Shown here: positions 6,836 through 37,971 of the stretch, piece by piece
Layout of the letters: every line of letters starts with the position of its first letter
Position numbering within the stretch: the stretch's first letter is position 1
DNA from: Acidimicrobiales bacterium
GTDB taxonomy: Bacteria; Actinomycetota; Acidimicrobiia; Acidimicrobiales; RAAP-2
Direction of reading: 5' to 3'
DNA: 42,419 nt
NCBI GenBank assembly: GCA_036509775.1
Contig: DATCEZ010000161.1
Span: 1 to 42,419 of the forward strand
Translations under genes and position numbers: made by a program
Notes under the pieces: model-generated
What the model was told of the DNA's origin: nothing
Seen by the model: the letters and a program-made list of their open reading frames with translations, nothing else
The model's database searches: none

Positions 6836-6889
6836 GTGTTACGCATGCGTTCCGAGACCTTCCGGCTCCTTGTCGGGTCGCGCCCGTGA
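6836..6889 (+). other. 17-codon upstream ORF (VLRMRSETFRLLVGSRP) whose stop overlaps the acyl-CoA ligase start (GTGA)
   Basis: AAGGAG at 6821-6826 is the only strong SD in the intergenic region and lies 9 nt before GTG 6836. The uORF stop TGA is at 6887-6889 and the ligase GTG is at 6886-6888. The ligase frame has no earlier start codon after TAA 6820-6822 and no SD of its own. Confidence 0.3.
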
Positions 6890-8445
6890 CCACCGTGCCA
6901 TTCGATTCGGCGGACGTGAACTGGTGCAATGTGCTCACCCACCACGCCGGACGGACGCCGGACAAGGTCCTCACGCTCTTCGAGGGTGAGGCGGTGACCT
7001 ACGCAGAGATGGCGCGCCGCGTTGCCGCGCTGGCCGGTGGCCTGAGCGGGCGCGGGGTCGGACCCGGCGACGTGGTGGCGATCCTGTCGTACAACTGCCC
7101 GGAGTTCCTCGAAGCGCTCTTCGCCGCCAACCACCTCGGCGCCATCGCCATGCCCATCAACTGGCGGCTTGCCGCCCCCGAGGTGCGCTACATCCTGGAG
7201 CACTCGGGCGCGCGGGCCTTGGTCTGCGACGTCGCGTTGCTCCCACTGGCCGACGAGGCCATCGCCGGCCTCGACCACGTCCCCGTGCGCATCAGCATTG
7301 CGCCCGTCGACACGCCAGGCTGGACGAGCCTCGCCGACCTTCGGCGCAACGTCGGCGAGGTGGAACCTGCGGCCGCGGTGGTCGCGGTGGCAGCGGCCGG
7401 CGACGATGTCCACCGGCTGATGTACACCTCTGGGACAACCGGCCGGCCCAAGGGCGTCATGCTCACGCACGCCAACCTGGCCTGGAAGAATCTGGCCCAC
7501 ATCGTCGAATTCGGGTTCACCAGTGCCGACCTCGGCCTGGCCTGTGGCCCGCTGTACCACGTCGGCGCGCTGGACCTGACGACGACGTCGCTCATCGCCG
7601 CCGGCGCCACGACCATCGTCCACCGTGCGTTCGACGCGGCCGCGGTGGTCGACGAAGTCGAGCGCTCCCGGGTCACCGCCGTGTGGCTGGCGCCCGCCAT
7701 GGTGAACGCCATCATGTCGCTGCCCGGCATTGAGCAGCGGGATCTCTCGTCCATCCGGGTCGTCATCAACGGCGGCGAGAAGATGCCGATCCCGCTGATA
7801 GAGCGGATTCAGCGTGTCTTTCCGTCGGCCTGGTTCGCCGATGCCTACGGCATGACCGAGACCGTCTCGGGCGACACGTTCCTCGACCGCAAGAGCATTA
7901 TCACCAAGCTCGGCTCCGTGGGCCGCCCCTGCCTCTACCTCGAGCTCGACTTGTGGGACGAGGACGGCAACACAGTGCCCGCCGGAGAACAGGGGGAGAT
8001 CGTCATGCGGGGGCCCAAGGTCTTCAAGGGGTACTGGCGGGACGAGGCGGCGACATCGGCCGCCTTCACCCGGGGCTGGTTCCACACGGGCGACATCGGC
8101 GTCCGCGATGAGGACGGCTACCTCTTCATCGTCGACCGGTTGAAGGACATGATCGTGTCGGGTGGCGAGAACATCGCCAGCTCCGAGATTGAGCGCGTCC
8201 TCTACGAGCACGACGCTGTCCTCGAGGCCGCCGTCGTCGGCCGTCCCGACGCGCGGTGGGGCGAGGTGCCGACGGCGTTCGTGGTCCTCCGCCCGGGCGC
8301 CGAAGTCACACCGGACGCGCTCGTCGCGTATTGCCAGGCGCAACTGGCACGCTTCAAGGTCCCCAAAGAGGTCACGTTCGTCGATGCGCTCCCGCGGAAT
8401 CCCTCGGGCAAGGTGCTCAAGCGTGAGCTCCGGGCGGCAGGGTGA
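6886..8445 (+). CDS. AMP-dependent acyl-CoA synthetase/ligase (FadD-like)
   Basis: 519 aa with the AMP-binding motif MYTSGTTGRPKGVML, plus GYWRDE, GWFHTGDIG...DRLKDMIVSGGENI and the C-terminal PRNPSGKVLKREL. Confidence 0.92.
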   Translation: MTTVPFDSADVNWCNVLTHHAGRTPDKVLTLFEGEAVTYAEMARRVAALAGGLSGRGVGPGDVVAILSYNCPEFLEALFAANHLGAIAMPINWRLAAPEVRYILEHSGARALVCDVALLPLADEAIAGLDHVPVRISIAPVDTPGWTSLADLRRNVGEVEPAAAVVAVAAAGDDVHRLMYTSGTTGRPKGVMLTHANLAWKNLAHIVEFGFTSADLGLACGPLYHVGALDLTTTSLIAAGATTIVHRAFDAAAVVDEVERSRVTAVWLAPAMVNAIMSLPGIEQRDLSSIRVVINGGEKMPIPLIERIQRVFPSAWFADAYGMTETVSGDTFLDRKSIITKLGSVGRPCLYLELDLWDEDGNTVPAGEQGEIVMRGPKVFKGYWRDEAATSAAFTRGWFHTGDIGVRDEDGYLFIVDRLKDMIVSGGENIASSEIERVLYEHDAVLEAAVVGRPDARWGEVPTAFVVLRPGAEVTPDALVAYCQAQLARFKVPKEVTFVDALPRNPSGKVLKRELRAAG

Positions 8446-9830
8446 GCACCGTGAGCACCGTGACCGGACCGATCACCGATGGCAAGGGATGGCCGTTCGG
8501 CCTGCCCACGACCGACCTGGCCGCGGTGGGCTACCGCGCCGACGAGTACTTCCTGGAGGGAGAGGCCGCCCGCTACGGGCCCGTCGCCGGCACCGAACTG
8601 GCACGGGACGGTCGCTGGCAGGTCGAGCCGGTGGGGACTGCCCCCTTCAAGACCCGCCTGGTGGTCCTGCGTCCGGTTGACGCCGCGGCCTTCAACGGGA
8701 CGGTGGTCGTGCTGTGGAACAACGTGAGCGCCGGCTACGAGAACTTCACCGGCGGCGACAGCCCTGAGGTGTTCGAGAACGGCTACGTCTACGTGGCCGC
8801 CTCCGTGCAGCGGGTCGGGATACACGGCCAACCCGACAACCCGCAGGGCCTGCGGGACTGGGACCCGGAGCGCTACGGCTCGCTGTCGATCCCCAGCGAC
8901 GACTACTCGTTCGACATCTACACGCAGGTGGCCGATCGGGTCGCGCCCGATCGGCCTCGTGGCGGCCTCGACCCGCTGCAGGGCCTGCAGGTGCGCCGGA
9001 TCATCGCCCAGGGCGCCTCGCAGTCGGCGGCGCGGCTGGCGTCCTACCTCAACGGCGTGCAGCCGCTCACCCGACGCTTCCATGCCTTCTTCCTCCTGAT
9101 GTACTTCGGTGGCGGCACGCCGCTGCAGGTGGGTGACGAGGTGATGACCGTCTCCGGGGCCGCCGCCGGCGCGAGTCCCCGGATCCCCGAGGGTGAGCAC
9201 CTGCTACGCGACGACCTCGGCGTTCCCGTCATGGTGCTCAACACCGAGTGTGAGGCCACGTCCTGTTACCCGGTCCGCCAGCCCGACTCCGAGCGCTTCC
9301 GTTACTGGGAGGTGGCCGGGGCCTCGCACGTCTCGCTGCAGGGCATCGCCTCGTCGTCCCCTCGTATGGAGCGGGACTTCGGGTTTGCCATTCCGCTGGA
9401 CGGCGAAGCCATGCAGGCCGTGAACCACGTCTCGGTGGCACCGGTGGTCGACGCGGCCTTACATCACCTGCAGGCCTGGCTCCTCGACGGGACGCCCCCT
9501 CCAGTCCAGCCGTTGATCGCCTTCGCCGGTGAGCCGGCGGTGATCGCCCGCGACGACAACGACATCGCCCGCCGCGGCATCAGGCTGCCCCAGGTGGAGG
9601 TCCCGCTGGGACACAACAGCGCCATACAGCAGGCGCCCGATGTCTTCGCCAGGCTCGTCGGCTACCACGAGAGCTTCCCCGACGAGAAGGTGCGCGCGCT
9701 CTACGGCAGCCGTGAGGAGTACCTCGCCCGCTATGACGTGGCCACGCGGGCGGCCCAGGCAGCCGGGGTCATTCTCCCCCGCGATGTCGATCCCCTCCTG
9801 GCGGAGGCGGCTCAGGCCTTCCCGCTCTGA
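8442..9830 (+). CDS. uncharacterised alpha/beta-hydrolase-like protein
   Basis: 462 aa. The GTG start overlaps the ligase stop (GTGA 8442-8445). It has a nucleophile-elbow-like IIAQGASQSAARL and a late EVAGASHVS. From memory it resembles actinobacterial 'alpha/beta hydrolase domain-containing' hypothetical proteins. The coding call is firm but the function is not. Confidence 0.75.
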   Translation: MSTVSTVTGPITDGKGWPFGLPTTDLAAVGYRADEYFLEGEAARYGPVAGTELARDGRWQVEPVGTAPFKTRLVVLRPVDAAAFNGTVVVLWNNVSAGYENFTGGDSPEVFENGYVYVAASVQRVGIHGQPDNPQGLRDWDPERYGSLSIPSDDYSFDIYTQVADRVAPDRPRGGLDPLQGLQVRRIIAQGASQSAARLASYLNGVQPLTRRFHAFFLLMYFGGGTPLQVGDEVMTVSGAAAGASPRIPEGEHLLRDDLGVPVMVLNTECEATSCYPVRQPDSERFRYWEVAGASHVSLQGIASSSPRMERDFGFAIPLDGEAMQAVNHVSVAPVVDAALHHLQAWLLDGTPPPVQPLIAFAGEPAVIARDDNDIARRGIRLPQVEVPLGHNSAIQQAPDVFARLVGYHESFPDEKVRALYGSREEYLARYDVATRAAQAAGVILPRDVDPLLAEAAQAFPL

Positions 9831-13652: not shown

Positions 13653-14252
13653 TTACGCCACCTCGAACCGGCCGTTGCCGACGCCACGCCCATGCTTGTG
13701 CGCCTGGCGGGACCCGACCTCCTCAATGACTTCGTCGGAGTGCTCAATGTCGAACTCGTTCCCACTGGCCCGCAGCTCGGCCAGGAGATCGGTCAGGCGG
13801 CCCCGCTTGGTCTCGGACAGGCCGATGCACGAGTACACGGTGGCGTTCAGGTCCCGCGTGGCCTCGGTCGCCACCCGCTCGCCGCGCGCCGTAATGACCG
13901 CGAGCGTGGTGCGCGCGTCGGAGGGGTGGGGAACGCGGCGCACGAGCTTGTCGCCCTCGAGTCTGTCCATGATGTTGGTGACGGTTGCCGGCGGGATCCG
14001 CAAGGTCTTGCTGATCCAACTCAGAGCCAGTGAGGATTCGGGATCCATGGCCAACCACGCCAACACCTCGTAGCGGGCGAACGTGAGGTCGTGATGGCGC
14101 ATGACGCCGTTCACCTGATCGTTCAGCAGCTGATACGAGCGGAGGACGGCTGTGTACACGGCCATCCCCGACGCCGCCTCGGGCTCCCACCGCTCCAGCC
14201 AGACGCGTCGGGACGCCTCGACGACATCGAACGGAGCTTTCTGGAAACCCAT
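13653..14252 (-). CDS. MarR family transcriptional regulator
   Basis: 199 aa with a winged-helix region: LTFARYEVLAWLAMDPESSLALSWISKTLRIPPATVTNIMDRLEGDKLVRRVPHPSDARTTLAVITARG. Confidence 0.9.
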   Translation of the reverse strand: MGFQKAPFDVVEASRRVWLERWEPEAASGMAVYTAVLRSYQLLNDQVNGVMRHHDLTFARYEVLAWLAMDPESSLALSWISKTLRIPPATVTNIMDRLEGDKLVRRVPHPSDARTTLAVITARGERVATEATRDLNATVYSCIGLSETKRGRLTDLLAELRASGNEFDIEHSDEVIEEVGSRQAHKHGRGVGNGRFEVA

Positions 14253-14283: not shown

Positions 14284-16779
14284 TCAGGTGCCCTGCACCA
14301 GTGAGCCGCCGACGATCCCGTCGGCCTCGAGCGTGTCGATGTCGGTCGGCGAGAGCCCGAGTTCGCCCAGAAGCACCCGGTTGTGCTCCCCGAGCAGCGG
14401 GGCATGCCGTTCGTGCACCTTTTCCGGACCTCGCGAGAACCGCATGGGCAGCGTGCTGTAGCGGGAGGATCCGATCACCGGATGCGCCAGCTCCTCGAAG
14501 AAACCACGCGCCGCCAGCTGGGGCAGGTCGGGCTGCTCATGGGGCTGCATCACCTTGCCGACCGGGACGCCGGCCTCCCACAGGGTCGTGACGATGTCGT
14601 CCGCCGACAGGGCGCGGCACCACTCCCCCAGCAGCGTGTCAATCCGATCGTGCGCGTGCACCCGGCCGGCCATGCTCGCCAGCTCGGGGTCGGCGGCCCA
14701 CTCCGGGTCGCCCAACGCGGACCGCAGGGCGCTCCACTGCTCGTCGGTCGCGACCGCGATGGCGACCCACCCGTCGTCCCGGCCCCGCTCGTCGGGGCCC
14801 GCGACCTTGTAGAGGTTCTGGGGCGCCGCCATGGGACCACGGTTCCCGGCCCGCTCGAGCAGAGAGCCGTAGGCCGAGAACTCAATCGGTTGCTCGGCCG
14901 CGATGTTGAGCGCGGCATCGACCATCGCCGCCTCCACGAGGCCCCCTTCACCGGTCCGCTCCCGGTGCTCGAGGGCGAGCAGCAAGCCGTACAACGCGTG
15001 AAGCCCCGCGTTGGGGTCACCGACGCAATAGGGCTCGAACGGGAGCAGGTCCGGATGCCCGGTCAGCCAGGTGAGACCGGCGGCGTCCTCAATGACGAAG
15101 GCGAAAGCCGACAGGTCGCGCCCCGGCCCGTCGAGCCCGAACCCGGGCATGCGCACCATGATCAGATCGGGTCGCACGTCGCGCAGGGAGTCGAAGTCGA
15201 GACCCAGCTGGTCCAGCACCCGCGGCGTGTAGTTCTCGATCACCACGTCGCACGTGCCGATGACGCGCCGCGCCAGGTCGAGGCCGCGCGGTTCGCGCAG
15301 GTCTATGGTCAGGCTCTTCTTGTTCGTGTTGAGCGCGGCGAAGATCGGGCCCCGCTCCCAGTACTTGTCCTCTGTTTGCGGGACACCACCGACCAGCCGG
15401 GCCCCGTCGGGACGGGTGGCGGACTCCAGGTGGATGACCTCGGCGCCTAGGAGCGCCAGCGTGTGACCCGTGAGGGGCCCGGCCCAGAACGACGTCATGT
15501 CCAGGATCCGGAGTCCCTCGAAGGGCAGCGTCCGGGACGCAGCTGTCGCAGGAGGTCGCACCGGCTGCGCCGGCGTCGCCGCCTCTTCTCTCCCCAACTC
15601 TCCGAGGCGGGGGGCCGCTTCGGGCGCCCGGAGGCTCCCGGCCCCGAGCCGGAAGGGCGGCCCGGGGTTTGTCGCGCCGTCCCTGGGATTGGCCACGAAC
15701 GTCCCGCGCTCGACGAAGTGCGCCCACGTGGTGGCGTTCGCCCCGTTGGTGATGGGTGCGTTGGGGATCCGGAAGGCCGAGGCCTCCTCCAACACCTCCT
15801 CGACGGTGTGGTCCGCGATCCAGGCGTCAATAGTGGGTGTCAGGGCGGTGCGATCGAGGAAGAGTGACTGGTCCTCCATCCACTCGGGGTGCCCCACCAG
15901 CACGCAGAAGTCCAACCACTGCTGCCCCGTCCCGCACCCGAGCCCGACGAGCCCGTCGCTGGCCGCCCCGACGCCGGGCGTCGCCACGAACCGCTTCCGG
16001 CGCATCGGTCGACCCAACTGGTCGTTGAAGGTCACCGGGTAATAGGTGAGGCTCATCGCCAGCGTCTCGAGCATGGAGACGTCGACGAGCTCACCGCCCG
16101 ACGCGGCGCGTCGACGGGCCGCCAGCGTCCCGATGGCGCCGTAGAGCCCGGTGAGCCACTCCCCGACCTGTCCGCCGACGAACACGGGCGGGCGTTCGGG
16201 CCGCCCGCGCGCCAGTCCGACGATGCCTCCGGACCAGGCTTGCAGCGTGAACTCGGTGGCCGGCTTGTCGCTCCAGGGTCCGTCGAGCCCGAACGGCGTG
16301 AGGGAGGTGACGACCAGATGCGGATGGGCCCGCACCACTTCGCGGGGGTCCAGCGCTGCCTGCTCCGCCAACGGCGAGCCCCGCGACCAGACAAGCGCGT
16401 CGGCCGAAGACAGCAGTGCGTGCACGGAATCGAGACCGCCGGGGTCCGTGCCGTCGACCACGACGCTGCGCTTGGAGGCGCCGAGGAAGTTGAAGAGCGC
16501 GCCGTCATCGTCGACGGGGATCGCGGCGCCTGAGGCCGACCAGCGTCGGAGCGGGTCGCCTTCGGGCGACTCCACCTTGATCACCTCTGCGCCACCGTCG
16601 GCCAGCAGCTTCGTGCAGTAGGCGCCGCCGATCCAGGTCGAGAGGTCGATCACCCGGAACCCCGAGAGCGGCGATGCGTCAGGCGCGCCCGACGGCGCCC
16701 CCGCGCCCGCCCCCGCTTCTGGTGCGGGCACGGTCAGTCGGCGGCGGGGCGGCGGCGGCCGGAACGGCTCAGCCGCCAC
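14284..16779 (-). CDS. family III CoA-transferase, tandem fusion of two CaiB/BaiF-like modules
   Basis: 831 aa. Two copies of the N-terminal signature are present: FRVIDLSTWIGGAYCTKLLADGGAEVIKVESPEGDPLRRW and LRILDMTSFWAGPLTGHTLALLGAEVIHLESATRPDG. The start is uncertain: GTG 16779 overlaps the crotonase gene by 46 nt, while in-frame GTG 16731 leaves a 2-nt gap. Confidence 0.9.
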   Translation of the reverse strand: MAAEPFRPPPPRRRLTVPAPEAGAGAGAPSGAPDASPLSGFRVIDLSTWIGGAYCTKLLADGGAEVIKVESPEGDPLRRWSASGAAIPVDDDGALFNFLGASKRSVVVDGTDPGGLDSVHALLSSADALVWSRGSPLAEQAALDPREVVRAHPHLVVTSLTPFGLDGPWSDKPATEFTLQAWSGGIVGLARGRPERPPVFVGGQVGEWLTGLYGAIGTLAARRRAASGGELVDVSMLETLAMSLTYYPVTFNDQLGRPMRRKRFVATPGVGAASDGLVGLGCGTGQQWLDFCVLVGHPEWMEDQSLFLDRTALTPTIDAWIADHTVEEVLEEASAFRIPNAPITNGANATTWAHFVERGTFVANPRDGATNPGPPFRLGAGSLRAPEAAPRLGELGREEAATPAQPVRPPATAASRTLPFEGLRILDMTSFWAGPLTGHTLALLGAEVIHLESATRPDGARLVGGVPQTEDKYWERGPIFAALNTNKKSLTIDLREPRGLDLARRVIGTCDVVIENYTPRVLDQLGLDFDSLRDVRPDLIMVRMPGFGLDGPGRDLSAFAFVIEDAAGLTWLTGHPDLLPFEPYCVGDPNAGLHALYGLLLALEHRERTGEGGLVEAAMVDAALNIAAEQPIEFSAYGSLLERAGNRGPMAAPQNLYKVAGPDERGRDDGWVAIAVATDEQWSALRSALGDPEWAADPELASMAGRVHAHDRIDTLLGEWCRALSADDIVTTLWEAGVPVGKVMQPHEQPDLPQLAARGFFEELAHPVIGSSRYSTLPMRFSRGPEKVHERHAPLLGEHNRVLLGELGLSPTDIDTLEADGIVGGSLVQGT

Positions 16780-17705
16780 TCCGGTGGGAAGAGATCGTCG
16801 TTGTCCTTGACCGCGAGGTTGAGCCCGGCATCCATGGTCTCCTTGCTCAGGGTGGCCCGACCGCCGTTGTCGTCCTCGCGTAGTTGCCCGCCCATCGACT
16901 CGAGCCAGGCGCTGAGCAGGCTGCCCATGTACTCACCCTGGTGCTGCTTCATGATTTCGAAGAAGACCTTCTGCATGAACACGGTGTCGGTCGGCCTCGT
17001 GCGGGCGCAGGCGAGCGCATACTTCGCCGTCTCCGCCTCGAGGCCCTCACGCGGGACGACGCTGTTCACGAAGTTGCACTCGTACATCTCGTCGGCCGTG
17101 AAGGGGCGGCCGGTGAAGACCATCTCCTGGAACTTGCGCATGCCCATCATCGTCGCCCACTGCCACATGCGCGGTGCGTAGCCGACGTAGCGGAAGGCGG
17201 GATGCCCGAACAACGCGTCGTCGGACGAGACGATGAGATCGGCGTCGGCTGCCTGGTAGAAGTGCCAGCCGTAGCAGTAGCCCTTCACCTCCAGGATGCT
17301 GATCTTCTTGAAGTCCTGCAGCGTTCGGCAGCCGGACCTCGAATTGCCGTACCAGTGCAGCAACGACGCGCCGGCGCGGTACGAGCGCGGGCCCGGCATG
17401 GTGACGTCGTCGTCCTCGTCGATCCCGAACTCCTCGTGCAGGGCGGTACCCGCCTCGCGCTTCGCCATCAGCTCGTCGAGGTCGGCACCGGTGCCGAGGT
17501 GGTCCCCCACGCCGCGCACGACGAGCACCTTGACGTCGTCGTCGATGTTGGCCTTGAACAGCAGGTCGGCGTAGCGACGCCGGGCCGCAATGGTCGGGAT
17601 GTTGAGCTGGTCCGGACGGTTGAGCGTGATGGTGGCGATCCGGGTAGCCGGATCCTTCTCGTAGAGGATGATCTCCTCGGCGGGTGGCACGTCGACTTCG
17701 CTCAC
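16734..17705 (-). CDS. crotonase-superfamily protein (atypical enoyl-CoA hydratase/isomerase-like)
   Basis: The start is GTG 17705, with AAGGAG 9 nt upstream. Crotonase fold motifs are IATITLNRPDQLN, VLVVRGVGDHLGTGADLDE and ILEVKGYCYGWH. A roughly 50-aa acidic insertion lies between them. The 443-aa ORF-track version is an artefactual extension. Confidence 0.85.
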   Translation of the reverse strand: MSEVDVPPAEEIILYEKDPATRIATITLNRPDQLNIPTIAARRRYADLLFKANIDDDVKVLVVRGVGDHLGTGADLDELMAKREAGTALHEEFGIDEDDDVTMPGPRSYRAGASLLHWYGNSRSGCRTLQDFKKISILEVKGYCYGWHFYQAADADLIVSSDDALFGHPAFRYVGYAPRMWQWATMMGMRKFQEMVFTGRPFTADEMYECNFVNSVVPREGLEAETAKYALACARTRPTDTVFMQKVFFEIMKQHQGEYMGSLLSAWLESMGGQLREDDNGGRATLSKETMDAGLNLAVKDNDDLFPPEWRLSRSGRRRPAAD

Positions 17706-17709: not shown

Positions 17710-18840
17710 TTAGGCTCCTTGTCGGCGGATGGGTGTCGTCGCCAGGGACTCGGGACCAGCATCCGTGACGACGATCGGCTCCTGCACGTAGAGGGCACCG
17801 ACGCCTTCCTTCCAGACGTAGCCGGTGAGTGCGAAGACCATGCCCGCCTCGACGTGCTGCTCGCCTGCCGTGAGCGGCAACGAGCGGGTGACGAGCGGGA
17901 GGTCGAAGCCGAGCCCGAGTCCGCGCGCCACCGGCATGGGCGGCTGGGGCTCGCCGGCGGCGTCGTACGCCGTGAGCAGCCCGGCGAGCGGGGCGCCGAC
18001 CCTGCAGGCGTCGAGGAGGCGCTCCCACAGGGCACTGGCGCGCTGGGCCAACTCGGAGTCGACATGACCCCCCTCGCGCACTGCGTGGGTGCGGCCCACC
18101 TCCCCCGAATAGCCCCCGAGGACGACGCCGGCCTCGAAGGCCACCAGGTCTCCGGGTTGCACCGGCGTATCGCGGTTGGTTCGCCGCCACGGGTCCTGGC
18201 GCGAGGTGATCCAGGCCACGTCCTGTCCGGAGGGCGTGGTGACCCCCGCCGCTGCCATGGCTTCCATGAAGATCGCGGTCAGCTGCCGCTCGGTCACGCC
18301 GGGCACCAACGCGTGCGTCGCTGCGGCGAGCGCCTCCTCGCCCACGCGCACCGACGCCCGTATGGCCTCGACCTCCTCGGAGCTCTTGACCCGGCGGATC
18401 TGGCGCAGCATCGGTTCGCCGTCGATGAACTCGGCCGCGGGGAACGCCTTGGGCAACAGGTTGGCCGACGAGCCCGACATGGAGTCGGTGGCGACCCTCC
18501 GGGCCGTGGCCGCGCCGTCGATGTTCGACAACACCGTCACGAAGTTCAGGGCGTTGAAGGTGATGCCGTACAGGTTCTCGTGGGGGATCTCCTCGGGAAT
18601 GCCCTCGTCCCATGTGCTCAGCAGGTGCACCGCGCCGTTCTCACGCACAAACACGCAGCCCGGACCGAATGCACGGGAGCCGGCCGTCCACAGACGCGGC
18701 GCGCCCGAGACGTAACGCGCGTTCCCCTCGCGGCCGACAATGAGGAAGTCGACGTCGGCTGCGTCCATGGCGGCCAGGACGCGGGCGCGGCGCGCCCGTC
18801 GGAGGGCAGCGTCATCGGGGAGTATCTCAACGACGGTCAT
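17710..18840 (-). CDS. M24-fold (creatinase/prolidase-like) protein with degenerate metal-ligand set
   Basis: 376 aa from ATG 18840, with a creatinase/prolidase N-domain plus a pita-bread domain. At the five canonical ligand positions I read E (AFEAG), E (SGEVGRT), R (ARGLG), T (ALTGY) and Q/E (VQEP), by eye alignment to prolidase. Confidence 0.85.
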   Translation of the reverse strand: MTVVEILPDDAALRRARRARVLAAMDAADVDFLIVGREGNARYVSGAPRLWTAGSRAFGPGCVFVRENGAVHLLSTWDEGIPEEIPHENLYGITFNALNFVTVLSNIDGAATARRVATDSMSGSSANLLPKAFPAAEFIDGEPMLRQIRRVKSSEEVEAIRASVRVGEEALAAATHALVPGVTERQLTAIFMEAMAAAGVTTPSGQDVAWITSRQDPWRRTNRDTPVQPGDLVAFEAGVVLGGYSGEVGRTHAVREGGHVDSELAQRASALWERLLDACRVGAPLAGLLTAYDAAGEPQPPMPVARGLGLGFDLPLVTRSLPLTAGEQHVEAGMVFALTGYVWKEGVGALYVQEPIVVTDAGPESLATTPIRRQGA

Positions 18841-18848
18841 GGGATCCT

Positions 18849-20078
18849 TTAAAAGGGGTCGTAGGAGTAGTCGGTCATGGGCTCCCAACCGTCATCCGTG
18901 ATGCGCAGCACTTCCTCGGAGCGGTACCCGGCGGCGCCGTCGTCCCAGACGATCGGCTCGAGCACCAGGACCATGCCGTCGACGAGGACCAGGGAGGCGT
19001 CGAACGCCTCGCCGATGTCGCTCCCGACGTAGGGCATTTCGGCGCTGTCGATCCCGAGCCCGTGGCCGAGGTAGAAGTGCGGCATCCAGGGCTTCGCGCC
19101 ACCGGCCGCACCGATGGCAGCGGCCGTCAGGTCCGCGGCCGTGGCCCCGGCCCGGGTGACGTCGAGCACGGCGCCCATGATCGACTGCCACTGCTCGTAC
19201 TGGGCCCGCTGACGCGCGCTCGGCTCACGTCCCACCACCCAGGTCCGCCCGAAATCGGAGTGGAACCCGGCGTAACTGATGCCGAGGTCGACCCAGAGCA
19301 CGTCGCCCTCGACCAGTTCACGCTCGGTCGAGAGCAGCGGGCAGGCGAGGTCTCCGGTCGTCGTCCACGGACCGTCCTCCAGGCGGGCGGGCATCACCTG
19401 CCAGATCGGGTCGAGGATGTTGGCGTCGGCCCCGGCCTCGAAGATCGTGCGCAGGAATGTCGCCGTGAGGTCGGTCTGACGGACGCCGGGGGCGATCTTG
19501 GCCTGCACATCGGCGATGGCCAGCTCGGTGATCCGCAGGCCCTCGCGCATGGCCGACAGCTCGTCAGGTGTCTTGGACGCCTTGGCCATGCTGATCACCC
19601 GGCCCGCGTCCTTGGGCGAACCCGAGGCGAACAGGATCGACTGCTCACGGCGCAGTGCGTTGGTCCATTCGTCCATGCCGATCACCGCCCCGCTGGGCAC
19701 CAATCCGCCGAGCTGCGTCGCGAACAGCTGCACGCCTTCGTCGAAGTCGAGGTAGACGGGGCCGTGGAGGTGATCCGCCGGCATCTTCTCCCGCAGGCGA
19801 TCGTCCTCCCGCATCGGGGTGAAGAGGTGCGGCCAGTCGTCATCGGCCAGGACGACAGCGACCGGTTGCTCGAAGTTCGCCCGGCCCGAATCGGCCAGGG
19901 GCCAGATGGCTCCGGTGGCGTAGGCGACGTTCGTGTTGCCGAGCAGCACCAGGGCGTCGAGCCCCTGTTGGCGCATGACCGTCTGCATGCGCTCCATGCG
20001 CTCCCGCTGCATCCGGGTGAAGTCCGGCGACGCCGGAATGGTCGCCGGCGGCGCTTTCGCCATCAGCCCGGCGGGCAT
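18849..20078 (-). CDS. M24 family metallohydrolase (Xaa-Pro peptidase/creatinase-like), canonical ligands
   Basis: ATG 20078 overlaps the upstream stop by 1 nt (TGATG). All five ligand positions are intact: VDLG, HSDFGRT, LGHGLG, VLEPIVW and RSEEVLRIT. Confidence 0.85.
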   Translation of the reverse strand: MPAGLMAKAPPATIPASPDFTRMQRERMERMQTVMRQQGLDALVLLGNTNVAYATGAIWPLADSGRANFEQPVAVVLADDDWPHLFTPMREDDRLREKMPADHLHGPVYLDFDEGVQLFATQLGGLVPSGAVIGMDEWTNALRREQSILFASGSPKDAGRVISMAKASKTPDELSAMREGLRITELAIADVQAKIAPGVRQTDLTATFLRTIFEAGADANILDPIWQVMPARLEDGPWTTTGDLACPLLSTERELVEGDVLWVDLGISYAGFHSDFGRTWVVGREPSARQRAQYEQWQSIMGAVLDVTRAGATAADLTAAAIGAAGGAKPWMPHFYLGHGLGIDSAEMPYVGSDIGEAFDASLVLVDGMVLVLEPIVWDDGAAGYRSEEVLRITDDGWEPMTDYSYDPF

Positions 20079-21250
20079 CAGTCCTCCACCCCGAGGTACC
20101 GCTTGATGTTGTCGCTGACGATGGCCGTGGCCGCCTCGACGCCGACTGCGTCCACCACGTACTTCAGCGACTCGCTGCTGTAGCCGTAGGTGCTCTCGTT
20201 GTGGGGGAAGTCGGTGGACCACATGACCTTGTCCACGCCGATGCGGTCCACCAGGTCGAGCCCGAGCGGATCCACCATGAACGAGGCGTACATGTTGTGC
20301 TCCCAGTAGTACCGGGGCTCGTGCTGCATCTTCAGGTTGGCGATGTGCCGGAAGGAGGCACTGATGTGCTCGGCGTCCTGCAACGCCGAGGGCACCCAGT
20401 TGATCCCACCCTCGAACCAGCCCACGCGCAGGCCTGGGTGGCGGTCGAGGACGCCACCGAGCACGTACTTGCCGAAGAGGTCGCGGAAGGGAGCCACGGA
20501 CTGCAGCATGCCGAGGATGACGGGATTGAACTCGTTGGGCGACGAGGGCGGGCTCTCGCCGATGTGGTGCGACACCGGCACCTGCTCCTCCTCAATGGCC
20601 TCCCACACGCCGTCCATGGCGCTGCTGCCGAAGTCGATCGGCTTGCCGTCGTCGTCCTTCCCCGGCGACAGCGGCATCAGGAAGGTCTTGAGCCCGAGCT
20701 GCTTCAGCTCGCGCAGGGTCCGCCGGGCCCCTTCGGCATCCCACCAATTGATCAGCCCGACGCCGTAGATCCGGTTGCCCGAGCGCTCCTGCACCTCGGC
20801 GATGTGCTCGTTGTAGATGCGGAAGCAGCGCTCGCGCATCTCCTTGTCCGGCCAGCCGAACAGGGCGAGCACGGAGTTCGGGAAGGCCAGCTCCTTGGTC
20901 ACGCCCTCGGACTCCAGCGCGGCGAGTCGGGCCTCCACGTCGCCCGTGTGCGACCCGGACACGGGGTCGTACATGGTCAGGACCTCGACGAACTCCCGCA
21001 CGAGGATGGACTTCCCGCCCATGCCCAGTACCCAGCCACCGTCGACGTTCATGACCCGCGGTGCCTGCTCTCGCACGTCCTCGGGCAGTCGCTCGTAGAA
21101 GATGTCGACGGCCAGCGAAATGTGGTCGTCGGCCGAGAACACCTCGACGTCGGCCGGGAGTCCCGAGTCGACGATCTGTCCCAGATGCCGGTCCTTCGGC
21201 GCTCCGAGACCGTCGGCCGGGTATGTCAGCGTTCTTGCGTGACCAGTCAT
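20078..21250 (-). CDS. amidohydrolase-2 family protein (ACMSD/LigW-type metal hydrolase or decarboxylase fold)
   Basis: 390 aa with N-terminal FSADDHISL, mid HHIGE, and C-terminal MWSTDFPHNEST. It is the first gene of the 5-gene minus-strand operon. Confidence 0.9.
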   Translation of the reverse strand: MTGHARTLTYPADGLGAPKDRHLGQIVDSGLPADVEVFSADDHISLAVDIFYERLPEDVREQAPRVMNVDGGWVLGMGGKSILVREFVEVLTMYDPVSGSHTGDVEARLAALESEGVTKELAFPNSVLALFGWPDKEMRERCFRIYNEHIAEVQERSGNRIYGVGLINWWDAEGARRTLRELKQLGLKTFLMPLSPGKDDDGKPIDFGSSAMDGVWEAIEEEQVPVSHHIGESPPSSPNEFNPVILGMLQSVAPFRDLFGKYVLGGVLDRHPGLRVGWFEGGINWVPSALQDAEHISASFRHIANLKMQHEPRYYWEHNMYASFMVDPLGLDLVDRIGVDKVMWSTDFPHNESTYGYSSESLKYVVDAVGVEAATAIVSDNIKRYLGVED

Positions 21251-21387
21251 CTCCCCCGCTTCACTCCCCCCACTCAGTCTTCGTGTGGTGCCCGCAGATT
21301 ACTTCGGCTTCGTAGCAATCGTCAACGGATCCTGCTAGCTTGCTCCATCGGGGAACAGCACGCCGTCGGGAGGTCGGGGAGGGTGAC

Positions 21388-23100
21388 ATGACCACGTGGG
21401 ACACCACCGTCGACCTCGTGATCGTCGGATCGGGCGGCGGCGGCATGGTGGCTGCGTTGGCCGCTGACGACGCCGGAGCCAGTGCCCTCGTGCTCGAGAA
21501 GCAGGAGCTCATCGGGGGCTCGACCTGCATGTCCGGCGGCATCGCCTGGGTCCCGAACAACCCGGTCATGGCAGCGGACGGCGTCCGTGACTCCTACGAG
21601 GACGCCATGGCCCACTTCGAAGCTGTCGTGGGCGACGTGGGTCCCTGCTCCTCCTTCGAACGGCGCCACGCCTTCTTGACGGCGGGCCCCGAAATGGTCT
21701 CGTTCCTGCAGGACAGCGGCGTCCGGTTCGTCTACTGCCCCGGGTACAGCGACTACTACTCGAGCGCCAAGGGCGGTCACGACAACGGGCGCGGCATTGA
21801 GCCGATCCCCTACGACGGGCGGGTCCTCGGCGAGTGGCTGCCCAAGCTGCAGCAAGGGCTGGCCAAGAGCCTCGGCCTCGCGGTCATGACGAACGAGGCG
21901 CGGTCGCTCTCGCACTACAACCGCAGCCTGCGCGCCTTCGCGATCTCGGCCCGGGTGGTCATCAGGACCTACGCCGCCCGCCTGCGCCGGCAGGAACTGC
22001 TGACGAACGGCGCCTCGCTGATCGCGCAGCTGCTGCGGATCGCCGTCGACCGGGGGATCCCGATCTGGACCGACACCCCGCTGGAAGAGCTGATCGTCGA
22101 GGACGGCCGCGTCGTCGGCGTCCGCACCGTGCGCGACGGCGTCCCCGTGCTGGTGCGGGCCCGCCAAGGTGTGCTCCTGGCCGCCGGCGGCTTCGCTCAC
22201 AACCGCGACATGCGCGTCGAGTTCGGAGGCGATCAGCCCAACCAGGCCAAGTGGTCGATCTCCAACCCGGGCGACACCGGGGACGCCATCCGGAGCGCCA
22301 TGGCCATCGGCGCCCAGACCGATCTGATGGACGAGGCCTGGTGGCTCCCGTCCCCCCGGACGGGACGCTTCGGGCAATCGACGCTCGACCAGGCCCGCCA
22401 GCGGCCGCGCACCATGTACGTCGACGCCGCAGGCAAGCGGTTCGTGAACGAGTCCAACTCCTACATGGAAGTCGGCAAGGCGATGTACGCCCGGGACAAG
22501 ACGAGCAAGGCGGTCCCGTGCTGGCTGGTCTTCGACGACCGCTACCGGAAGCGCTACGCGCACCAGCGCTCCTCGCCGGGACGGTTCCCACGCAAGCTGC
22601 TCAAGAGCGGCATGCTCAAGCAGGCCTGGACGCTGAAGGACCTCGCCGTCATGTGCGGGATCGATCCCACCGGCCTGACCGAGACCGTCGAGCGCTTCAA
22701 CGAGAACGCCGAGCGGGGCATCGACCCCGACTACGGGCGGGGTGAGTCCGCCTACAACCGGGCGCTGGGTGACCCGAACCACAAGGTCCACCCCTGCCTC
22801 GGGCCCATTGACGAGGCCCCGTTCTACGCCTGCCAGGTCGTGCCCGGTGACATCGGCACCTGTGGCGGCCTCCTGACTGACGAGGACGCGCGGGTCGTCG
22901 ACCAGGGCGGTCGGGTGATCGACGGGCTCTACGCCACCGGCAACGGCACCGCCACCGTCATGGGCCGCCACTACCTCGGTCCGGGGGCGAGCATCGCCAA
23001 CACCATGGTCTTCGGCTACGTGGCCGCCCGGCACGCCGCCCGGACCGAGGCCCGGACCGAGGCGCGGACCGAGGCGCGGACCGAGGCTCCCGCCTCGTGA
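21388..23100 (+). CDS. FAD-dependent oxidoreductase, 3-ketosteroid-delta1-dehydrogenase/fumarate-reductase flavoprotein-like
   Basis: ATG 21388 follows GGAGGTCGGGGAGGG. The dinucleotide fold is DLVIVGSGGGGMVAALAADDAGASALVLEK..IGGST, and the C-terminal motif is GLYATGN. The tail carries (ARTE)x4. Confidence 0.9.
   Translation: MTTWDTTVDLVIVGSGGGGMVAALAADDAGASALVLEKQELIGGSTCMSGGIAWVPNNPVMAADGVRDSYEDAMAHFEAVVGDVGPCSSFERRHAFLTAGPEMVSFLQDSGVRFVYCPGYSDYYSSAKGGHDNGRGIEPIPYDGRVLGEWLPKLQQGLAKSLGLAVMTNEARSLSHYNRSLRAFAISARVVIRTYAARLRRQELLTNGASLIAQLLRIAVDRGIPIWTDTPLEELIVEDGRVVGVRTVRDGVPVLVRARQGVLLAAGGFAHNRDMRVEFGGDQPNQAKWSISNPGDTGDAIRSAMAIGAQTDLMDEAWWLPSPRTGRFGQSTLDQARQRPRTMYVDAAGKRFVNESNSYMEVGKAMYARDKTSKAVPCWLVFDDRYRKRYAHQRSSPGRFPRKLLKSGMLKQAWTLKDLAVMCGIDPTGLTETVERFNENAERGIDPDYGRGESAYNRALGDPNHKVHPCLGPIDEAPFYACQVVPGDIGTCGGLLTDEDARVVDQGGRVIDGLYATGNGTATVMGRHYLGPGASIANTMVFGYVAARHAARTEARTEARTEARTEAPAS
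23038..23085 (+). repeat. in-frame tandem repeat 4 x 12 bp (GCSCGGACCGAG) encoding ARTE-ARTE-ARTE-ARTE
   Basis: Units start at 23038, 23050, 23062 and 23074 and differ only at the third base of the Ala codon. The repeat lies 15 nt before the stop of the flavoprotein gene. Confidence 0.9.
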
Positions 23101-23111
23101 GGGAATGGGTC

Positions 23112-23321
23112 CTAGGTCAACGCCTCGCCGTCCCGGCGCACTGTGATGGCATGCGTCGGACACTGGCGCGCCGCCGTCACGATCGCGTCCTCGGTCGCAG
23201 CGTCGGGGTCGACGACGCGCGCAATGGAATCGTCGTCGAGCTCGAAGACCCCCGGCGCGGCGTACACGCAGTTGCCCGAACCCATGCACGAGTCGCGGTC
23301 GATCTCGATCTCCATGCGCAT
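23112..23321 (-). CDS. small [3Fe-4S]-type ferredoxin (P450-partner type)
   Basis: 69 aa from ATG 23321: MRMEIEIDRDSCMGSGNCVYAAPGVFELDDD...QCPTHAITV. The C-x2-G-x2-C...C-P pattern matches single-cluster actinobacterial ferredoxins. Confidence 0.85.
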   Translation of the reverse strand: MRMEIEIDRDSCMGSGNCVYAAPGVFELDDDSIARVVDPDAATEDAIVTAARQCPTHAITVRRDGEALT

Positions 23322-23327
23322 GGTGCG

Positions 23328-23337
23328 ATCGTAGGCT
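23328..23337. promoter_or_regulatory. face-to-face overlapping -10 hexamers: TACGAT (minus, 6 nt before the fdx ATG) and TAGGCT (plus, P450 promoter)
   Basis: The plus strand reads gcgATCGTAGGCTcc. The minus strand reads TACGAT CGCACC ATG, which predicts a leaderless ferredoxin mRNA. TAGGCT at 23332-23337 would give a roughly 28-nt P450 leader carrying GGAAGG. Confidence 0.35.
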
Positions 23338-23371
23338 CCGAAGGCAGGCACAGGGAGACGCAGGAAGGCGC

Positions 23372-24649
23372 ATGAGCGAGTTCGAGAAGGCAAACTTCAT
23401 TACGGATCGGGCCATCCAGAATGATCCGTACCCCTACTTCGACTGGGTGCGGGAGCAGGGTCCGGTGTGGCGGGAGCCACACTTCGGCATGTACATGATC
23501 ACCGGCCACCCCGAGGCGATGGCGATCTACGGCGACCCGGCCACGTTCCCCGAGAACGACCTGCCGTCGGGGACGTACTCGTCGTGCAACGTGGTCTGCG
23601 GATCGTTCGTCAAGTTCCCCGTCCCGATGGAGGGCGACGACGTCAGCGACCTCATTGTGCAGTACCGCAACGAGCTCCCGTTCAGCGACCAGCTCCCCTC
23701 GTTCGACCCGCCGAACCACACGGCACACCGGCATCTGCTGATGCGGCTCATCACACCGAAGCGCCTCAAGGAGAACGAGGACTTCATGTGGCAGTTCGCC
23801 GACCGCCTCATCGACGCGTTCTTCGAGGACGGGTCGTTCGAAATGGTCGGCTCGTACGCCGAGCCGTTCACCCTGACGGTCATCGCCGACCTCGAAGGCG
23901 TGCCCGAGTCGGACCACTCGCTGTTCCGGGAGCGGCTCTCGACCGCGCACCAGGACGTCGGCCACAAACCCCTGGAGTTCCTCTACGAGCGCTTCAACGA
24001 CTACATCGAGGATCGCCGGCGCACCCCGCGCAACGACGTCCTCACCGGCCTGGCCACCGCCACGTTCCCCGACGGCTCGACCCCTGAGGCCAAGGACGCC
24101 GCCCTGATCGCCGCCAACCTCTTCGCCGGCGGCCAGGAGACCACCGTGCGCCTGCTCTCGTTCGCGCTGCGCATGCTGGGCGAACGGCCCGACCTCCAAG
24201 AGGCCGTGCGGGCTGACCGCGAGAAGATCCCGAACTTCATTGAGGAGACCCTCCGGCTCGAGAGCCCCCTGCGGACCCAGTTCCGGATGGCCCGCGTCGC
24301 CACGCAGCTCGGCGGTGTCGACATCCCGGCCGGGGCATCACTGATGCTCATCCCCGGCGCCTGCAACCGGGACCCCCGGGTGTTCGATCACCCCGACGAG
24401 TTCGACATCGACCGCCCGAACGCGCGGCAGCACATCGCCTTCGGGCACGGGATCCACACCTGTGCGGGAGCGCCGCTCGCCCGCGCCGAGGGCCGGGTCA
24501 CGCTCAATCGCTTCCTCGACCGCACGGCGGACATCTCCATTTCCGAAGAGCACCACGGTCCGGCGGACGCTCGCCGCTACGAGTACCTCCCGACCTTCTT
24601 CCTGCGTGGCCTTCAGAGCCTCAATCTCGAGTTCACTCCAGCCGGCTGA
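23372..24649 (+). CDS. cytochrome P450
   Basis: 425 aa with the heme-thiolate loop FGHGIHTCAGAPLA, the I-helix AGGQETT and the K-helix ETLRL (ExxR). Confidence 0.95.
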   Translation: MSEFEKANFITDRAIQNDPYPYFDWVREQGPVWREPHFGMYMITGHPEAMAIYGDPATFPENDLPSGTYSSCNVVCGSFVKFPVPMEGDDVSDLIVQYRNELPFSDQLPSFDPPNHTAHRHLLMRLITPKRLKENEDFMWQFADRLIDAFFEDGSFEMVGSYAEPFTLTVIADLEGVPESDHSLFRERLSTAHQDVGHKPLEFLYERFNDYIEDRRRTPRNDVLTGLATATFPDGSTPEAKDAALIAANLFAGGQETTVRLLSFALRMLGERPDLQEAVRADREKIPNFIEETLRLESPLRTQFRMARVATQLGGVDIPAGASLMLIPGACNRDPRVFDHPDEFDIDRPNARQHIAFGHGIHTCAGAPLARAEGRVTLNRFLDRTADISISEEHHGPADARRYEYLPTFFLRGLQSLNLEFTPAG

Positions 24650-24672
24650 GGAGCATGGCGGGACCGCTCACT

Positions 24673-25482
24673 TCAGGACGGAGACGTGTCCCCGCTCTCC
24701 GGGGGTCGCAGCGTCGACATGATCAGCTTCGTCTGCGCATAGGGCGGCCCGGCCGTGGTCCCGCCGTCGATGGGCAGCACGACGCCGGTCACCTGTGCCG
24801 CGCGGTCGCTGGAAAGCCAGACGACAGCGTTGGCTACGTCCTCGGGCTGCGCTTCGCGCCCCAAGGGCTGCATGTACTTCAAAACCGGCCCCATCTCGTA
24901 GGTCGTGATCCCGGTGCGGATATGGGCGGGCGTCAGGCAGTTGACCCTGATGTTGTAGGGCGCCAGATCGATGGCCATGCACTTGCTGGCGTGGGCGATG
25001 GCCGCCTTCGACGCCCGGTATGAAATCATGCCGGTGCCCGCGTTGATGGCGGCGATCGAGGCGTTGTTGATGATCGATCCCCCGCCGTGATCCTTCATGT
25101 AGCGCCCCGCGCGCTGGGAGCCGACGATAACGCCGAAGAGGTTCACGTTCATGATCCGGGAGAAGTCTTCGAGGTCGTCCGGCAGGAACCGCTTGAGGGG
25201 GCTGCCGATCCCGGCGTTGTTGAACATGATGTCCAGGCCGCCGAAGCGATCGACGGCGAAGTCGACCAACGCCTGCACCTGGTCCGCCTCACTGACGTCG
25301 GTCTGCTTGAAGGCAGCCGCGTCGCCGATGCTGTCGGCCAGCTGCTGCCCGCTCTCGGCGTCGACGTCCCCGATGACCACACTGGCCCCTTCGACCACGA
25401 GCAGCTCGGCTGTCGCCTTCCCGATGCCGCCCGCTCCGCCCGTCACGACGGCAACTTTTCCCTGGAGCTCTTGCGTCTGCAT
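24673..25482 (-). CDS. SDR family oxidoreductase
   Basis: Motifs KVAVVTGGAGGIGKA, NNAG and YRASKAA. It is convergent with the P450 gene across a 23-nt gap. Confidence 0.92.
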   Translation of the reverse strand: MQTQELQGKVAVVTGGAGGIGKATAELLVVEGASVVIGDVDAESGQQLADSIGDAAAFKQTDVSEADQVQALVDFAVDRFGGLDIMFNNAGIGSPLKRFLPDDLEDFSRIMNVNLFGVIVGSQRAGRYMKDHGGGSIINNASIAAINAGTGMISYRASKAAIAHASKCMAIDLAPYNIRVNCLTPAHIRTGITTYEMGPVLKYMQPLGREAQPEDVANAVVWLSSDRAAQVTGVVLPIDGGTTAGPPYAQTKLIMSTLRPPESGDTSPS

Positions 25483-25488
25483 GCCATG

Positions 25489-25494
25489 ACACTA
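25489..25494 (-). promoter_or_regulatory. -10 hexamer TAGTGT exactly 6 nt upstream of the SDR ATG (leaderless transcript predicted)
   Basis: The minus strand reads AGACCG TAGTGT CATGGC ATG CAG, with no SD. Confidence 0.45.
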
Positions 25495-37954: not shown

Positions 37955-37971
37955 GCGCCTACCATCGGACC

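Follow-up and report, generated by a model that had tools for sequence, protein, structure and literature searches.

Introduction

Coenzyme A (CoA)-transferases of family III, or type III, form their active site from one subunit's large domain and its partner's small domain, and Asp169, the nucleophile of CaiB, is strictly conserved in Frc, YfdW, FCOCT, Rv3272, and Mct (PMC9196870). A subfamily with two such domains in a single protein is characterized by a poorly conserved linker and comprised 2,401 known members in 2017, mostly from Actinobacteria and Proteobacteria (PMC6006322). DddD was the only two-domain member characterized before PtmU4, whose homologues share an Asp that is conserved in their C-terminal domain, and it forms an outgroup to the other two-domain proteins (PMC6006322). 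The reaction of DddD is the conversion of dimethylsulfoniopropionate (DMSP) to 3-hydroxypropionyl-CoA and dimethyl sulfide using acetyl-CoA (PMC8163506). The present analysis deals with a tandem type III CoA-transferase encoded at positions 14284-16779 on the minus strand of contig DATCEZ010000161.1 (assembly GCA_036509775.1) of an Acidimicrobiales bacterium; the complete stretch of 42,419 nucleotides (nt) that was analyzed is referred to as the window. This tandem transferase belongs to the recognized two-domain subfamily.

The protein is most likely a fused pseudo-heterodimer with one conventional active site. A preliminary description of the same DNA had suggested that the single chain is a pseudo-heterodimer and that it has either no conventional site or one; the form with one site is retained here, although the route to it had led over the wrong motif.

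Catalytic Register of the Two Modules

The open reading frame (ORF) of the tandem transferase is uninterrupted, starts with GTG and encodes 831 amino acids (aa), with the stop codon included in the coordinates. As had been recognized before, it comprises two family-III modules, both of which were recovered as full-length CoA_transf_3 domains (Pfam PF02515, E 1.4e-163). Module 1 (residues 38-400; 15580-16668, on the minus strand like all further features of this gene) is a BbsE-like, degenerate CoA_transf_3 domain with a score of 238.9 bits and covers positions 1-364 of the 366 profile positions, and module 2 (residues 419-825; 14305-15525) is a BbsF-like, catalytic one with 310.9 bits and a coverage of positions 2-366 (cut-off 23.3 bits). 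The N-terminal signatures are FRVIDLS at residues 41-47 in module 1 and LRILDMT at residues 423-429 in module 2, and the two modules share about 27-30% identity according to tblastn self-matches. The linker between them (residues 401-418; 15526-15579) is poorly conserved and was modeled with a predicted local distance difference test score (pLDDT) of 75-80. Over residues 396-418, the mean frequency of the top residue is 0.22 and no column is conserved to at least 90%.

For the assignment of the nucleophile, the sequences of caiB, frc (yfdW), and yfdE of E. coli MG1655 were aligned with both modules by MAFFT. In this alignment, D169 of CaiB, D169 of Frc, and D173 of YfdE share one column, which is occupied by Asp588 in module 2 (codon 15016-15018), the predicted catalytic nucleophile, and by Glu207 in module 1 (codon 16159-16161). 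The register around this position reads C-V-G-D588-P-N-A-G in module 2 and Q-V-G-E207-W-L-T-G in module 1. Comparison with PDB chains by HMMER likewise aligned 'ALGDSNTG' of YfdW, 'AFADIFTG' of 4ed9, and 'NYTDHV' of BbsF to 'CVGD588PNAG', and 'AFADIFTGLY' of 4ed9 to 'QVGE207WLTGLY' of module 1. Hence D588 aligns with D178 of BbsF, the Asp of N-Y-T-D-H-V (residue counted along the BbsF sequence), and the PDB entry 9fol bears the title 'BbsEF, D178-CoA adduct'. This experimental anchor for BbsEF was taken from PDB titles, which provide further anchors in the exchanges of Frc Asp169 to Ala, Ser, or Glu, in CaiB D169A, and in Rv3272 D175A. Judged from these alignments, module 2 retains the canonical catalytic Asp because Asp588 occupies the Asp169 column of CaiB and Frc, and module 1 has Glu instead.

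The preliminary description had stated that neither half keeps the catalytic Asp, which does not hold for module 2. The statement was based on a "G-Y-D-x-x-A-Q-A-x-S-G" stretch taken as the active site. The strings quoted for it are present as written, i.e., A174-TEFTLQAWS-G184 in module 1 (16228-16260) and A558-FAFVIEDAA-G568 in module 2 (15076-15108), and neither contains the nucleophile, although the stretch of module 1 is a conserved family motif. In the MAFFT alignment, the Asp column of the quoted "G-Y-D" holds Asn for CaiB, Glu for Frc, and Asp for YfdE, and therefore cannot be that of the nucleophile, which lies about 28 residues further downstream. The replacement of Asp by Glu that had been noticed in module 1 is thus correct for the nucleophile column, but concerns residue 207 and not residue 176. 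It had also been considered that another register might bring a conserved Asp to the catalytic position of both halves, and such an Asp was found in module 2 only. Within the motif itself, the Gln of A-Q-A differs reciprocally between the modules, being Glu in 96/113 C-terminal modules (C-modules; here E564, codon 15088-15090, which replaces the canonical Gln) and Gln in 87/113 N-terminal modules (N-modules; here Q180).

Conservation Asymmetry and Relation to BbsE and BbsF

Column counts were obtained from a sample of 113 diverse tandem proteins, i.e., relatives with 33-52% identity. The nucleophile column of module 2 features Asp in 112 of these 113 proteins, whereas that of module 1 contains Glu in 64, Asp in 21, and Gln in 7 cases, followed by H, Y, S, A, L, R, F, and G. 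Signature columns, defined as those in which four or all five of the proven catalytic subunits CaiB, Frc, YfdE, 4ed9, and BbsF agree, amount to 77, and module 2 keeps 57 of them vs. 39 in module 1. The losses of module 1 are located in the large domain and comprise the Asn of E-N-F/Y, the Asn of N-x-x-K, and the Arg after the catalytic helix. The first of these corresponds to Frc N96 and is Ser132 in module 1. In a sample of 29 proteins, Asn occurs in this column in 3% of the N-modules vs. 97% of the C-modules, and the residues equivalent to Frc N64 and R187 are kept in 34 vs. 97% and in 10 vs. 93%, respectively. The full sample of 113 gives the same picture for the N96 column, with Asn in 5 N-modules and 109 C-modules, and even among the 21 proteins with an Asp in the N-module only one carries this Asn (1/21). 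Moreover, module 2 has 43 columns with at least 90% conservation, many of them polar (R424, D427, E452, D458, R461, N484, K487, D511, N516, D588, R606, R643, N646, R706, and R758), and module 1 has 22, which are mostly Gly and Pro. By these sequence criteria, the tandem transferase bears the marks of one catalytic half, module 2, and one scaffold-like half, module 1.

The same asymmetry is known from the two subunits of BbsEF, the heteromeric benzylsuccinate CoA-transferase. BbsF is the best PDB sequence match of module 2 (E 3.9e-56, 32% identity), and module 1 scores 91.9 bits against BbsE and 54.3 bits against BbsF. The catalytic column of BbsE lacks Asp, containing Glu according to HMMER and Tyr according to MAFFT, and its residue at the Frc N96 column is Ser. 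Separate hidden Markov models (HMMs) of the N-modules and C-modules were built from 112 tandem representatives and used for cross-scoring. BbsE reached 305.5 bits with the N-module model vs. 205.9 bits with the C-module model (+100 for the N-module) and BbsF 225.1 vs. 404.9 bits (+180 for the C-module), whereas homodimeric enzymes were near neutral, with differences of -2.5 for 4ed9, -2.9 for CaiB, -23 for YfdE, and -66 for Frc. In a neighbor-joining (NJ) tree, BbsE was placed within the N-module clade and BbsF within the C-module clade, near the halves of the same tandem proteins. As far as sequence relationships go, the N-module resembles BbsE and the C-module BbsF, which corresponds to a BbsEF-type division of labor fused in E-to-F order, as the genes bbsE and bbsF are arranged.

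Protein P0267 is the sole tandem representative that lacks Asp in the C-module column, featuring His at this position and an Asp two residues later. Its halves are the nearest tree neighbors of BbsE and BbsF. P0267 may thus be an enzyme of the BbsEF kind in fused form, unless the alignment is shifted at this position.

Predicted Structure and Mechanism

An AlphaFold2 model based on 40 close homologues (at least 72% identity) was discarded, with a mean pLDDT of 59 and values below 50 in the active-site regions. With 125 sequences, relatives of 33-52% identity among them, AlphaFold2 yielded a model of all 831 residues with a mean pLDDT of 93.6 and a predicted template modeling score (pTM) of 0.94. 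In this model, E207 is located in the first turn of helix 205-225 and D588 in the first turn of helix 587-609, each being the long central helix of its module. In a structural comparison by Foldseek, each half matched chains of the family. The top rank went to BbsF, the best fold match of module 2, with 32% identity and a template modeling score of 0.92 relative to the target; human SUGCT, YfdW, and Frc came next. At the boundary of linker 1 and the small domain, module 1 carries an Arg/Lys-rich loop (residues 256-268, GRPMRRKRFVATP; 15976-16014) with five Lys or Arg residues vs. a median of two; G256, P258, M259, R260, R263, and P268 are invariant in the clade of at least 72% identity. According to the in-trans rule for family-III sites, this loop may face the Asp588 site.

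From these data the following mechanism is proposed. The tandem chain would reproduce the interlocked family-III dimer within one molecule. Its single site would arise from two domains, the large one of module 2 with Asp588 and the residues that bind CoA, and the small one of module 1 with the clade-invariant Arg/Lys-rich loop. Asp588 would attack the donor acyl-CoA, resulting in an aspartyl-acyl anhydride and CoA thiolate, an Asp-CoA thioester intermediate would form next, and CoA would then be loaded onto the acceptor carboxylate. The mirror-image pocket, formed by the large domain of module 1 with Glu207 and the small domain of module 2, is devoid of the canonical residues and probably vestigial, or else it might serve a structural purpose.

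Reality of the Fusion and Translation Start

A search of 5.8 billion proteins with the tandem transferase resulted in 3,968 matches, and the best 120 of them feature a length of 737-832 aa (most 786-832 aa) and 71-100% identity. A profile-free exhaustive search of 1.84 billion cluster representatives gave 6,319 matches below 1e-30; the full-length tandem architecture is present in 112 of the best 150 representative matches, at identities of 33-52%. Furthermore, an identical single-ORF layout was found at 79 genome loci, including complete chromosomes of metagenome-assembled genomes (MAGs). Nearly all of these loci belong to MAGs of uncultured Acidimicrobiaceae or Acidimicrobiales, soil Acidimicrobiaceae among them. 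The preliminary description had taken into account that the fusion could be a sequencing or assembly frameshift joining adjacent genes, which is conceivable a priori and in view of the split relatives bbsE and bbsF. Such an artefact is excluded because the same single ORF recurs across the 79 independent loci, complete chromosomes included, and in thousands of database proteins, and both modules are packed with confidence into a single body in the predicted model (pTM 0.94); the probability left for it is negligible.

The start codon probably requires a correction. The crotonase gene upstream ends 2 nt before an alternative GTG at codon 17 (16729-16731). A start at this GTG would give a product of 815 aa, which is the length of the database protein P0001 that is 100% identical to the tandem transferase. 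Residues 1-29 are unconserved and were predicted to be disordered, with a pLDDT below 50 in the AlphaFold2 model. The true start is probably this second GTG, the ORF of 831 aa being over-extended at its 5' end.

Operon and Neighborhood

The gene of the tandem transferase occupies the last position but one in an operon on the minus strand, in the order of an amidohydrolase-related dinuclear oxygenase (ARO), the two M24 genes M24a and M24b, crotonase, transferase, and MarR. The frequencies of these genes were determined at the 67 loci of at least 20 kb. Immediately downstream, the MarR-family regulator (13653-14252, minus strand) is found at 67/67 loci. The upstream partner is a gene of the crotonase/enoyl-CoA hydratase family (16734-17702, minus strand; about 322 aa, ECH_1; 66/67 loci), which is preceded by the M24/creatinase-like genes M24b (17710-18888, minus strand; degenerate metal ligands, 54/67 loci) and M24a (18849-20078, minus strand; 409 aa from an ATG, five metal ligands kept, 58/67 loci). 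The PtmU3/DitZ-like ARO gene (20078-21250, minus strand) again occurs at 67/67 loci.

The divergent side of the operon comprises genes for a KstD-like enzyme, a ferredoxin, a cytochrome P450, a short-chain dehydrogenase/reductase (SDR), and a Rieske oxygenase. The KstD-like FAD-dependent desaturase of the 3-ketosteroid delta-1-dehydrogenase family (21340-23100, plus strand; 64/67 loci) matches NF009478 with 791.4 bits at a cut-off of 789. It is followed by the small ferredoxin (23112-23321, minus strand; 69 aa), whose translation contains a CxxGxxC...CP pattern resembling 3Fe-4S/4Fe-4S proteins, and syntenic genes of 69 and 78 aa at the loci L004 and L003 show Fer4_15/Fer4_13 matches. The P450 (23372-24649, plus strand) and the SDR (24673-25482, minus strand) are present at 65/67 and 62/67 loci, respectively. 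Altogether, the order of MarR, transferase, crotonase, M24b, M24a, ARO, KstD-like desaturase, P450, and SDR is kept in 54-67 of the 67 loci, and the annotated loci L003 and L004 feature the same gene order. Clusters with relatives of 51-59% identity retain ARO, crotonase, transferase, MarR, KstD-like desaturase, and P450 and lack the M24 pair.

The product of the ARO gene, an Amidohydro_2 protein, can be assigned on the basis of its motifs. D-x-H and D-x-P-H-x-D/E define the amidohydrolase-related dinuclear oxygenases, and the protein contains D41-D-H and D347-F-P-H-N-E, the latter being the Glu variant as in PtmU3. Its closest relatives are PtmU3 (6omp, E 4e-30) and DitZ (8uyr, E 4e-28). By sequence it is a dinuclear oxygenase and not a hydrolase-type member.

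Several side observations concern the M24 genes and the gene junctions. An alignment to the E. coli methionine aminopeptidase MetAP shows that none of the five metal ligands is lost in M24a (D, D, H, E, E) and that M24b features E, E, R, T, and Q at the same columns, so that a second pair of an active and a degenerate protein exists within the operon. The M24 pair is absent from the distant cluster versions L065 and L076. The ATG of M24a overlaps the stop codon of ARO as ATGA (20076-20080), and the GTG of the transferase follows 2 nt after the crotonase stop (16729-16736); both junctions look translationally coupled. The M24a ORF of 457 aa is probably over-extended at the 5' end as well, with a true length of 409 aa.

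Proposed Pathway

The conserved core of the 67 loci contains no acyl-CoA synthetase, and the nearest AMP-binding gene (6886-8445) is located five genes from the transferase and present in 20/67 loci. The simplest role of the transferase would be to provide the CoA ester for oxygenase and crotonase. PtmU3 is a beta-hydroxylase of CoA-ligated diterpenoids, and DitZ is known as a hydroxylase of diterpenoids. The same logic applies to the catabolism of Ambrox and the biosynthesis of platensimycin, where the carboxylate is borne by a gem-dimethyl carbon, C5 is hydroxylated, and the ring is opened by a retro-aldol reaction (PMC13599519). The operon context suggests that a terpenoid-like or alicyclic acid is activated with CoA. 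With lower confidence, as only the gene neighborhood speaks for it, the transferase would form the CoA thioester of a bulky carboxylic acid of the alicyclic or terpenoid type, which might then be hydroxylated by the PtmU3/DitZ-like diiron oxygenase. The crotonase-family enzyme would process the hydroxylated ester, possibly by retro-aldol ring opening, and the products of the divergent P450, ferredoxin, SDR, and KstD-like genes may prepare the ring.

A more specific version of this pathway is put forward tentatively, as rather doubtful in its entirety. It regards the tandem transferase as the entry enzyme of an uncharacterized pathway, widespread in soil Acidimicrobiaceae, which would be a catabolic counterpart of the platensimycin A-ring cleavage. 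ATP-free CoA loading of a terpenoid or alicyclic acid with a quaternary alpha-carbon would be followed by tertiary beta-hydroxylation by the ARO and retro-aldol opening by the crotonase. The degenerate N-module would owe its retention to its small domain, acting as a specificity lid for the bulky substrate.

As a separate observation, the divergent gene set at 21340-26948 resembles the toolkit for aerobic aromatization of cyclohexanecarboxylate, with matches to the NCBIfam models ChcB and ChcC that are well under the cut-offs (187 vs. 350 bits and 356 vs. 900 bits).

Evaluation of the Explanation and Its Alternatives

Taken as a whole, it appears likely that the gene codes for a type III CoA-transferase of two domains with one working site at Asp588 which serves CoA activation in a catabolic operon. 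Several points weigh against it. Glu207 is invariant among tandem relatives of at least 72% identity, and its column is acidic in 85 of the 113 tandem proteins (75%); this conservation may reflect a function that was kept in part. Behind linker 1, module 2 features an R-x-G-N motif with at least 90% conservation (R643, G645, and N646) that is not conserved in module 1, and its action in trans would place it opposite the pocket presumed to be vestigial. The modest bootstrap values in the NJ tree (33-71%, with 33-58% for the BbsE/N-module and BbsF/C-module clades) and a numerical warning raised by the run have to be added; the E/F specialization therefore rests on the HMM cross-scoring instead. 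With regard to the pathway, the assignment of the substrate is based on gene neighborhood alone, the two M24 proteins of the operon have no place in it, and DitZ, a close relative of the ARO, was assayed with free dehydroabietic acid, which suggests that a CoA ester is not needed by DitZ.

The first two of these points lead to the idea that both pockets work, with Glu207 either as a second, unconventional nucleophile or as part of a second CoA- or acyl-binding site. Glu is the nucleophile in family I CoA-transferases, and an E207 that is invariant in its clade, a column that is mostly acidic across the tandem proteins, and a conserved module-2 R-x-G-N motif that may face the Glu207 pocket would all fit. 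Nevertheless, two working pockets are unlikely, since the E207 column is non-acidic in 28/113 proteins and the losses in the N-module are family-wide (Asn at the N96 column in 5/113, besides N64 and R187) and affect even those proteins with an Asp. The D169E variant of Frc is reportedly inactive. It was made as an active-site mutant, as recorded in a PDB title, and the exchanges D430A/E/N in PtmU4 reduced the activity 125-400-fold (PMC6006322), a loss that argues against Glu207 as a good nucleophile. The opposite proposal, put forward in the preliminary description, was that the catalytic Asp is missing from both modules and that Glu176 together with the pair E564-D565 enables a lyase- or racemase-like chemistry. 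The letters were quoted correctly, the E176 column contains Glu in 59 and Asp in 33 and the E564 column Glu in 96 of the 113 tandem proteins, and family III does include racemases such as MCR and the transferase/lyase DddD. Still, this is extremely unlikely and, as far as the alignments go, already refuted: the column chosen is N in CaiB and E in Frc and hence not that of the nucleophile, D588 stands in the true column, conserved as Asp in 112/113 proteins and aligned to Asp178 of the BbsF CoA adduct, and D565 is not conserved (Gln in 68/113). In the MCR of M. tuberculosis, His126 and Asp156 form the catalytic pair. The match to its structure 1x74 extends over residues 482-624 of the tandem transferase vs. 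49-193 of the chain and maps His126 to about residue 559; the His column is occupied by T175 in module 1 and F559 in module 2, and no His was found near it in residues 170-180 (SDKPATEFTLQ) or 554-564 (RDLSAFAFVIE). Support for the lyase or racemase function is thus lacking, and module 2 possesses the residue set of proven transferases.

Other alternatives accept the site at Asp588 and differ in the reaction that it catalyzes. As family III contains Mct and IaaL, the enzyme might be an intramolecular CoA-transferase that moves CoA between two carboxyls of a ring-cleavage product. Ring-opening pathways yield mono-CoA esters of dicarboxylic acids which need such a step, a weak match to the NCBIfam mesaconyl-CoA isomerase exists (94 bits vs. 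a cut-off of 725), and the loop between residues 643 and 653 lacks the tetraglycine. The latter does not discriminate, as CaiB and SptAB are also without it; moreover, with no acyl-CoA synthetase in the conserved core the first thioester needs a maker, and the closest relative BbsF transfers CoA intermolecularly, which renders this function improbable. ThnP, an intramolecular CoA-transferase of naphthalene degradation, was also considered as a relative and was dismissed as a member of family I. A bifunctional transferase/lyase that couples CoA loading to the elimination of a beta-leaving group would correspond to DddD, a characterized two-domain type III enzyme of similar size, and the adjacent M24 protein could be seen in this context since the DMSP lyase DddP belongs to M24 (45.9 bits vs. 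a cut-off of 600). We regard it as very unlikely: the neighborhood lacks dddT, dddB, and dddC of the DddD loci (PMC8163506), DddD is the reported outgroup of the two-domain proteins (PMC6006322), a separate crotonase is available for elimination or hydration chemistry, and the genomes are MAGs of soil Acidimicrobiaceae. A complete DMSP reading with M24 as DddP and the tandem transferase as DddD was likewise rejected, given the DddP score of 45.9 against 600 bits, the lack of ddd genes, and the M24 pair missing from distant clusters. Finally, a thioacid synthase of the PtmU4 type, by which sulfur is transferred to an acyl-CoA, would be in line with the two-domain architecture and the conserved C-terminal Asp, both in common with PtmU4, and with the PtmU3-like gene in the same operon. 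However, over 90% of the members of the thioacid group are accompanied by a PtmA3-type acyl-CoA synthetase no more than two genes away (PMC6006322), whereas the two genes flanking the tandem transferase on each side encode crotonase and M24b or MarR and a major facilitator superfamily protein, with no PtmA3-type ligase among them, and genes for a sulfur-carrier protein were not seen in the cluster. A thioacid synthase is accordingly highly improbable.

Other Features of the Window

Outside the conserved core, the window contains an acyl-CoA synthetase (AMP-binding) gene followed by that of an Abhydrolase_10 protein (6886-9830, plus strand) and, beyond the Rieske gene, a BBE/FAD_binding_4 oxidase gene (27545-29080, plus strand). 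The AMP-binding, Abhydrolase_10, and BBE/FAD_binding_4 genes are present in 20/67, 10/67, and 0/67 loci, respectively. Signaling proteins are encoded at 34255-42023, comprising two kinases, i.e., a CHASE3 histidine kinase and a PAS hybrid kinase, and two response regulators, one of which carries a SpoIIE phosphatase domain and the other an EAL domain. Over the final 5 kb the G+C content (GC), which is about 0.69 before, drops to 0.56-0.62, and scans of the whole window for tRNA genes and Rfam families found nothing.

Significance

A family member without a nucleophile in either half would have been a surprise, which is not the case here. The tandem transferase is a well-supported fused pair of an active and a degenerate enzyme, a principle known from DddD, PtmU4, and BbsEF. 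Across the family, the Asp of the C-module is universal and the residues of the CoA site in the N-module are lost everywhere. The two-domain proteins are thereby linked to heteromers of the BbsE/BbsF type, and no mention of this link was found in the literature examined. Moreover, the conserved operon with its PtmU3/DitZ-like oxygenase provides a concrete hypothesis, and the operon may bear on the degradation of terpenoid or alicyclic acids by soil Actinomycetota. The interest of the locus is modest and lies mainly in the conserved operon context and the BbsE/F-type asymmetry.

Comparison With Known Systems

With the two-domain subfamily, the tandem transferase has in common the tandem PF02515 domains, the poorly conserved linker, and the restriction of the conserved catalytic Asp to the C-terminal domain. 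It differs from PtmU4 and DddD in gene context, as neither an adjoining PtmA3-type ligase nor ddd genes are present. The racemase MCR and the transferase Mct feature the superfamily fold and an Asp equivalent to D588, but the scores of the tandem transferase against them are far below those against transferases. Frc/YfdW, YfdE, CaiB, SUGCT, and 4ed9 have the same fold and the same Asp nucleophile column as module 2; unlike the tandem transferase with its diverged halves, they are symmetric homodimers with two identical sites. In BbsEF, the bbs genes belong to anaerobic toluene degradation and include the partners acyl-CoA dehydrogenase BbsG and thiolase BbsAB, which are not adjacent to the tandem transferase, whose operon is aerobic in character with its P450, Rieske, and diiron oxygenases. 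BbsE and BbsF are separate polypeptides, whereas the tandem transferase is a single fused ORF. Both nevertheless combine one partner without the nucleophile, BbsE or module 1, with one that carries it, as D178 in BbsF and D588 in module 2.

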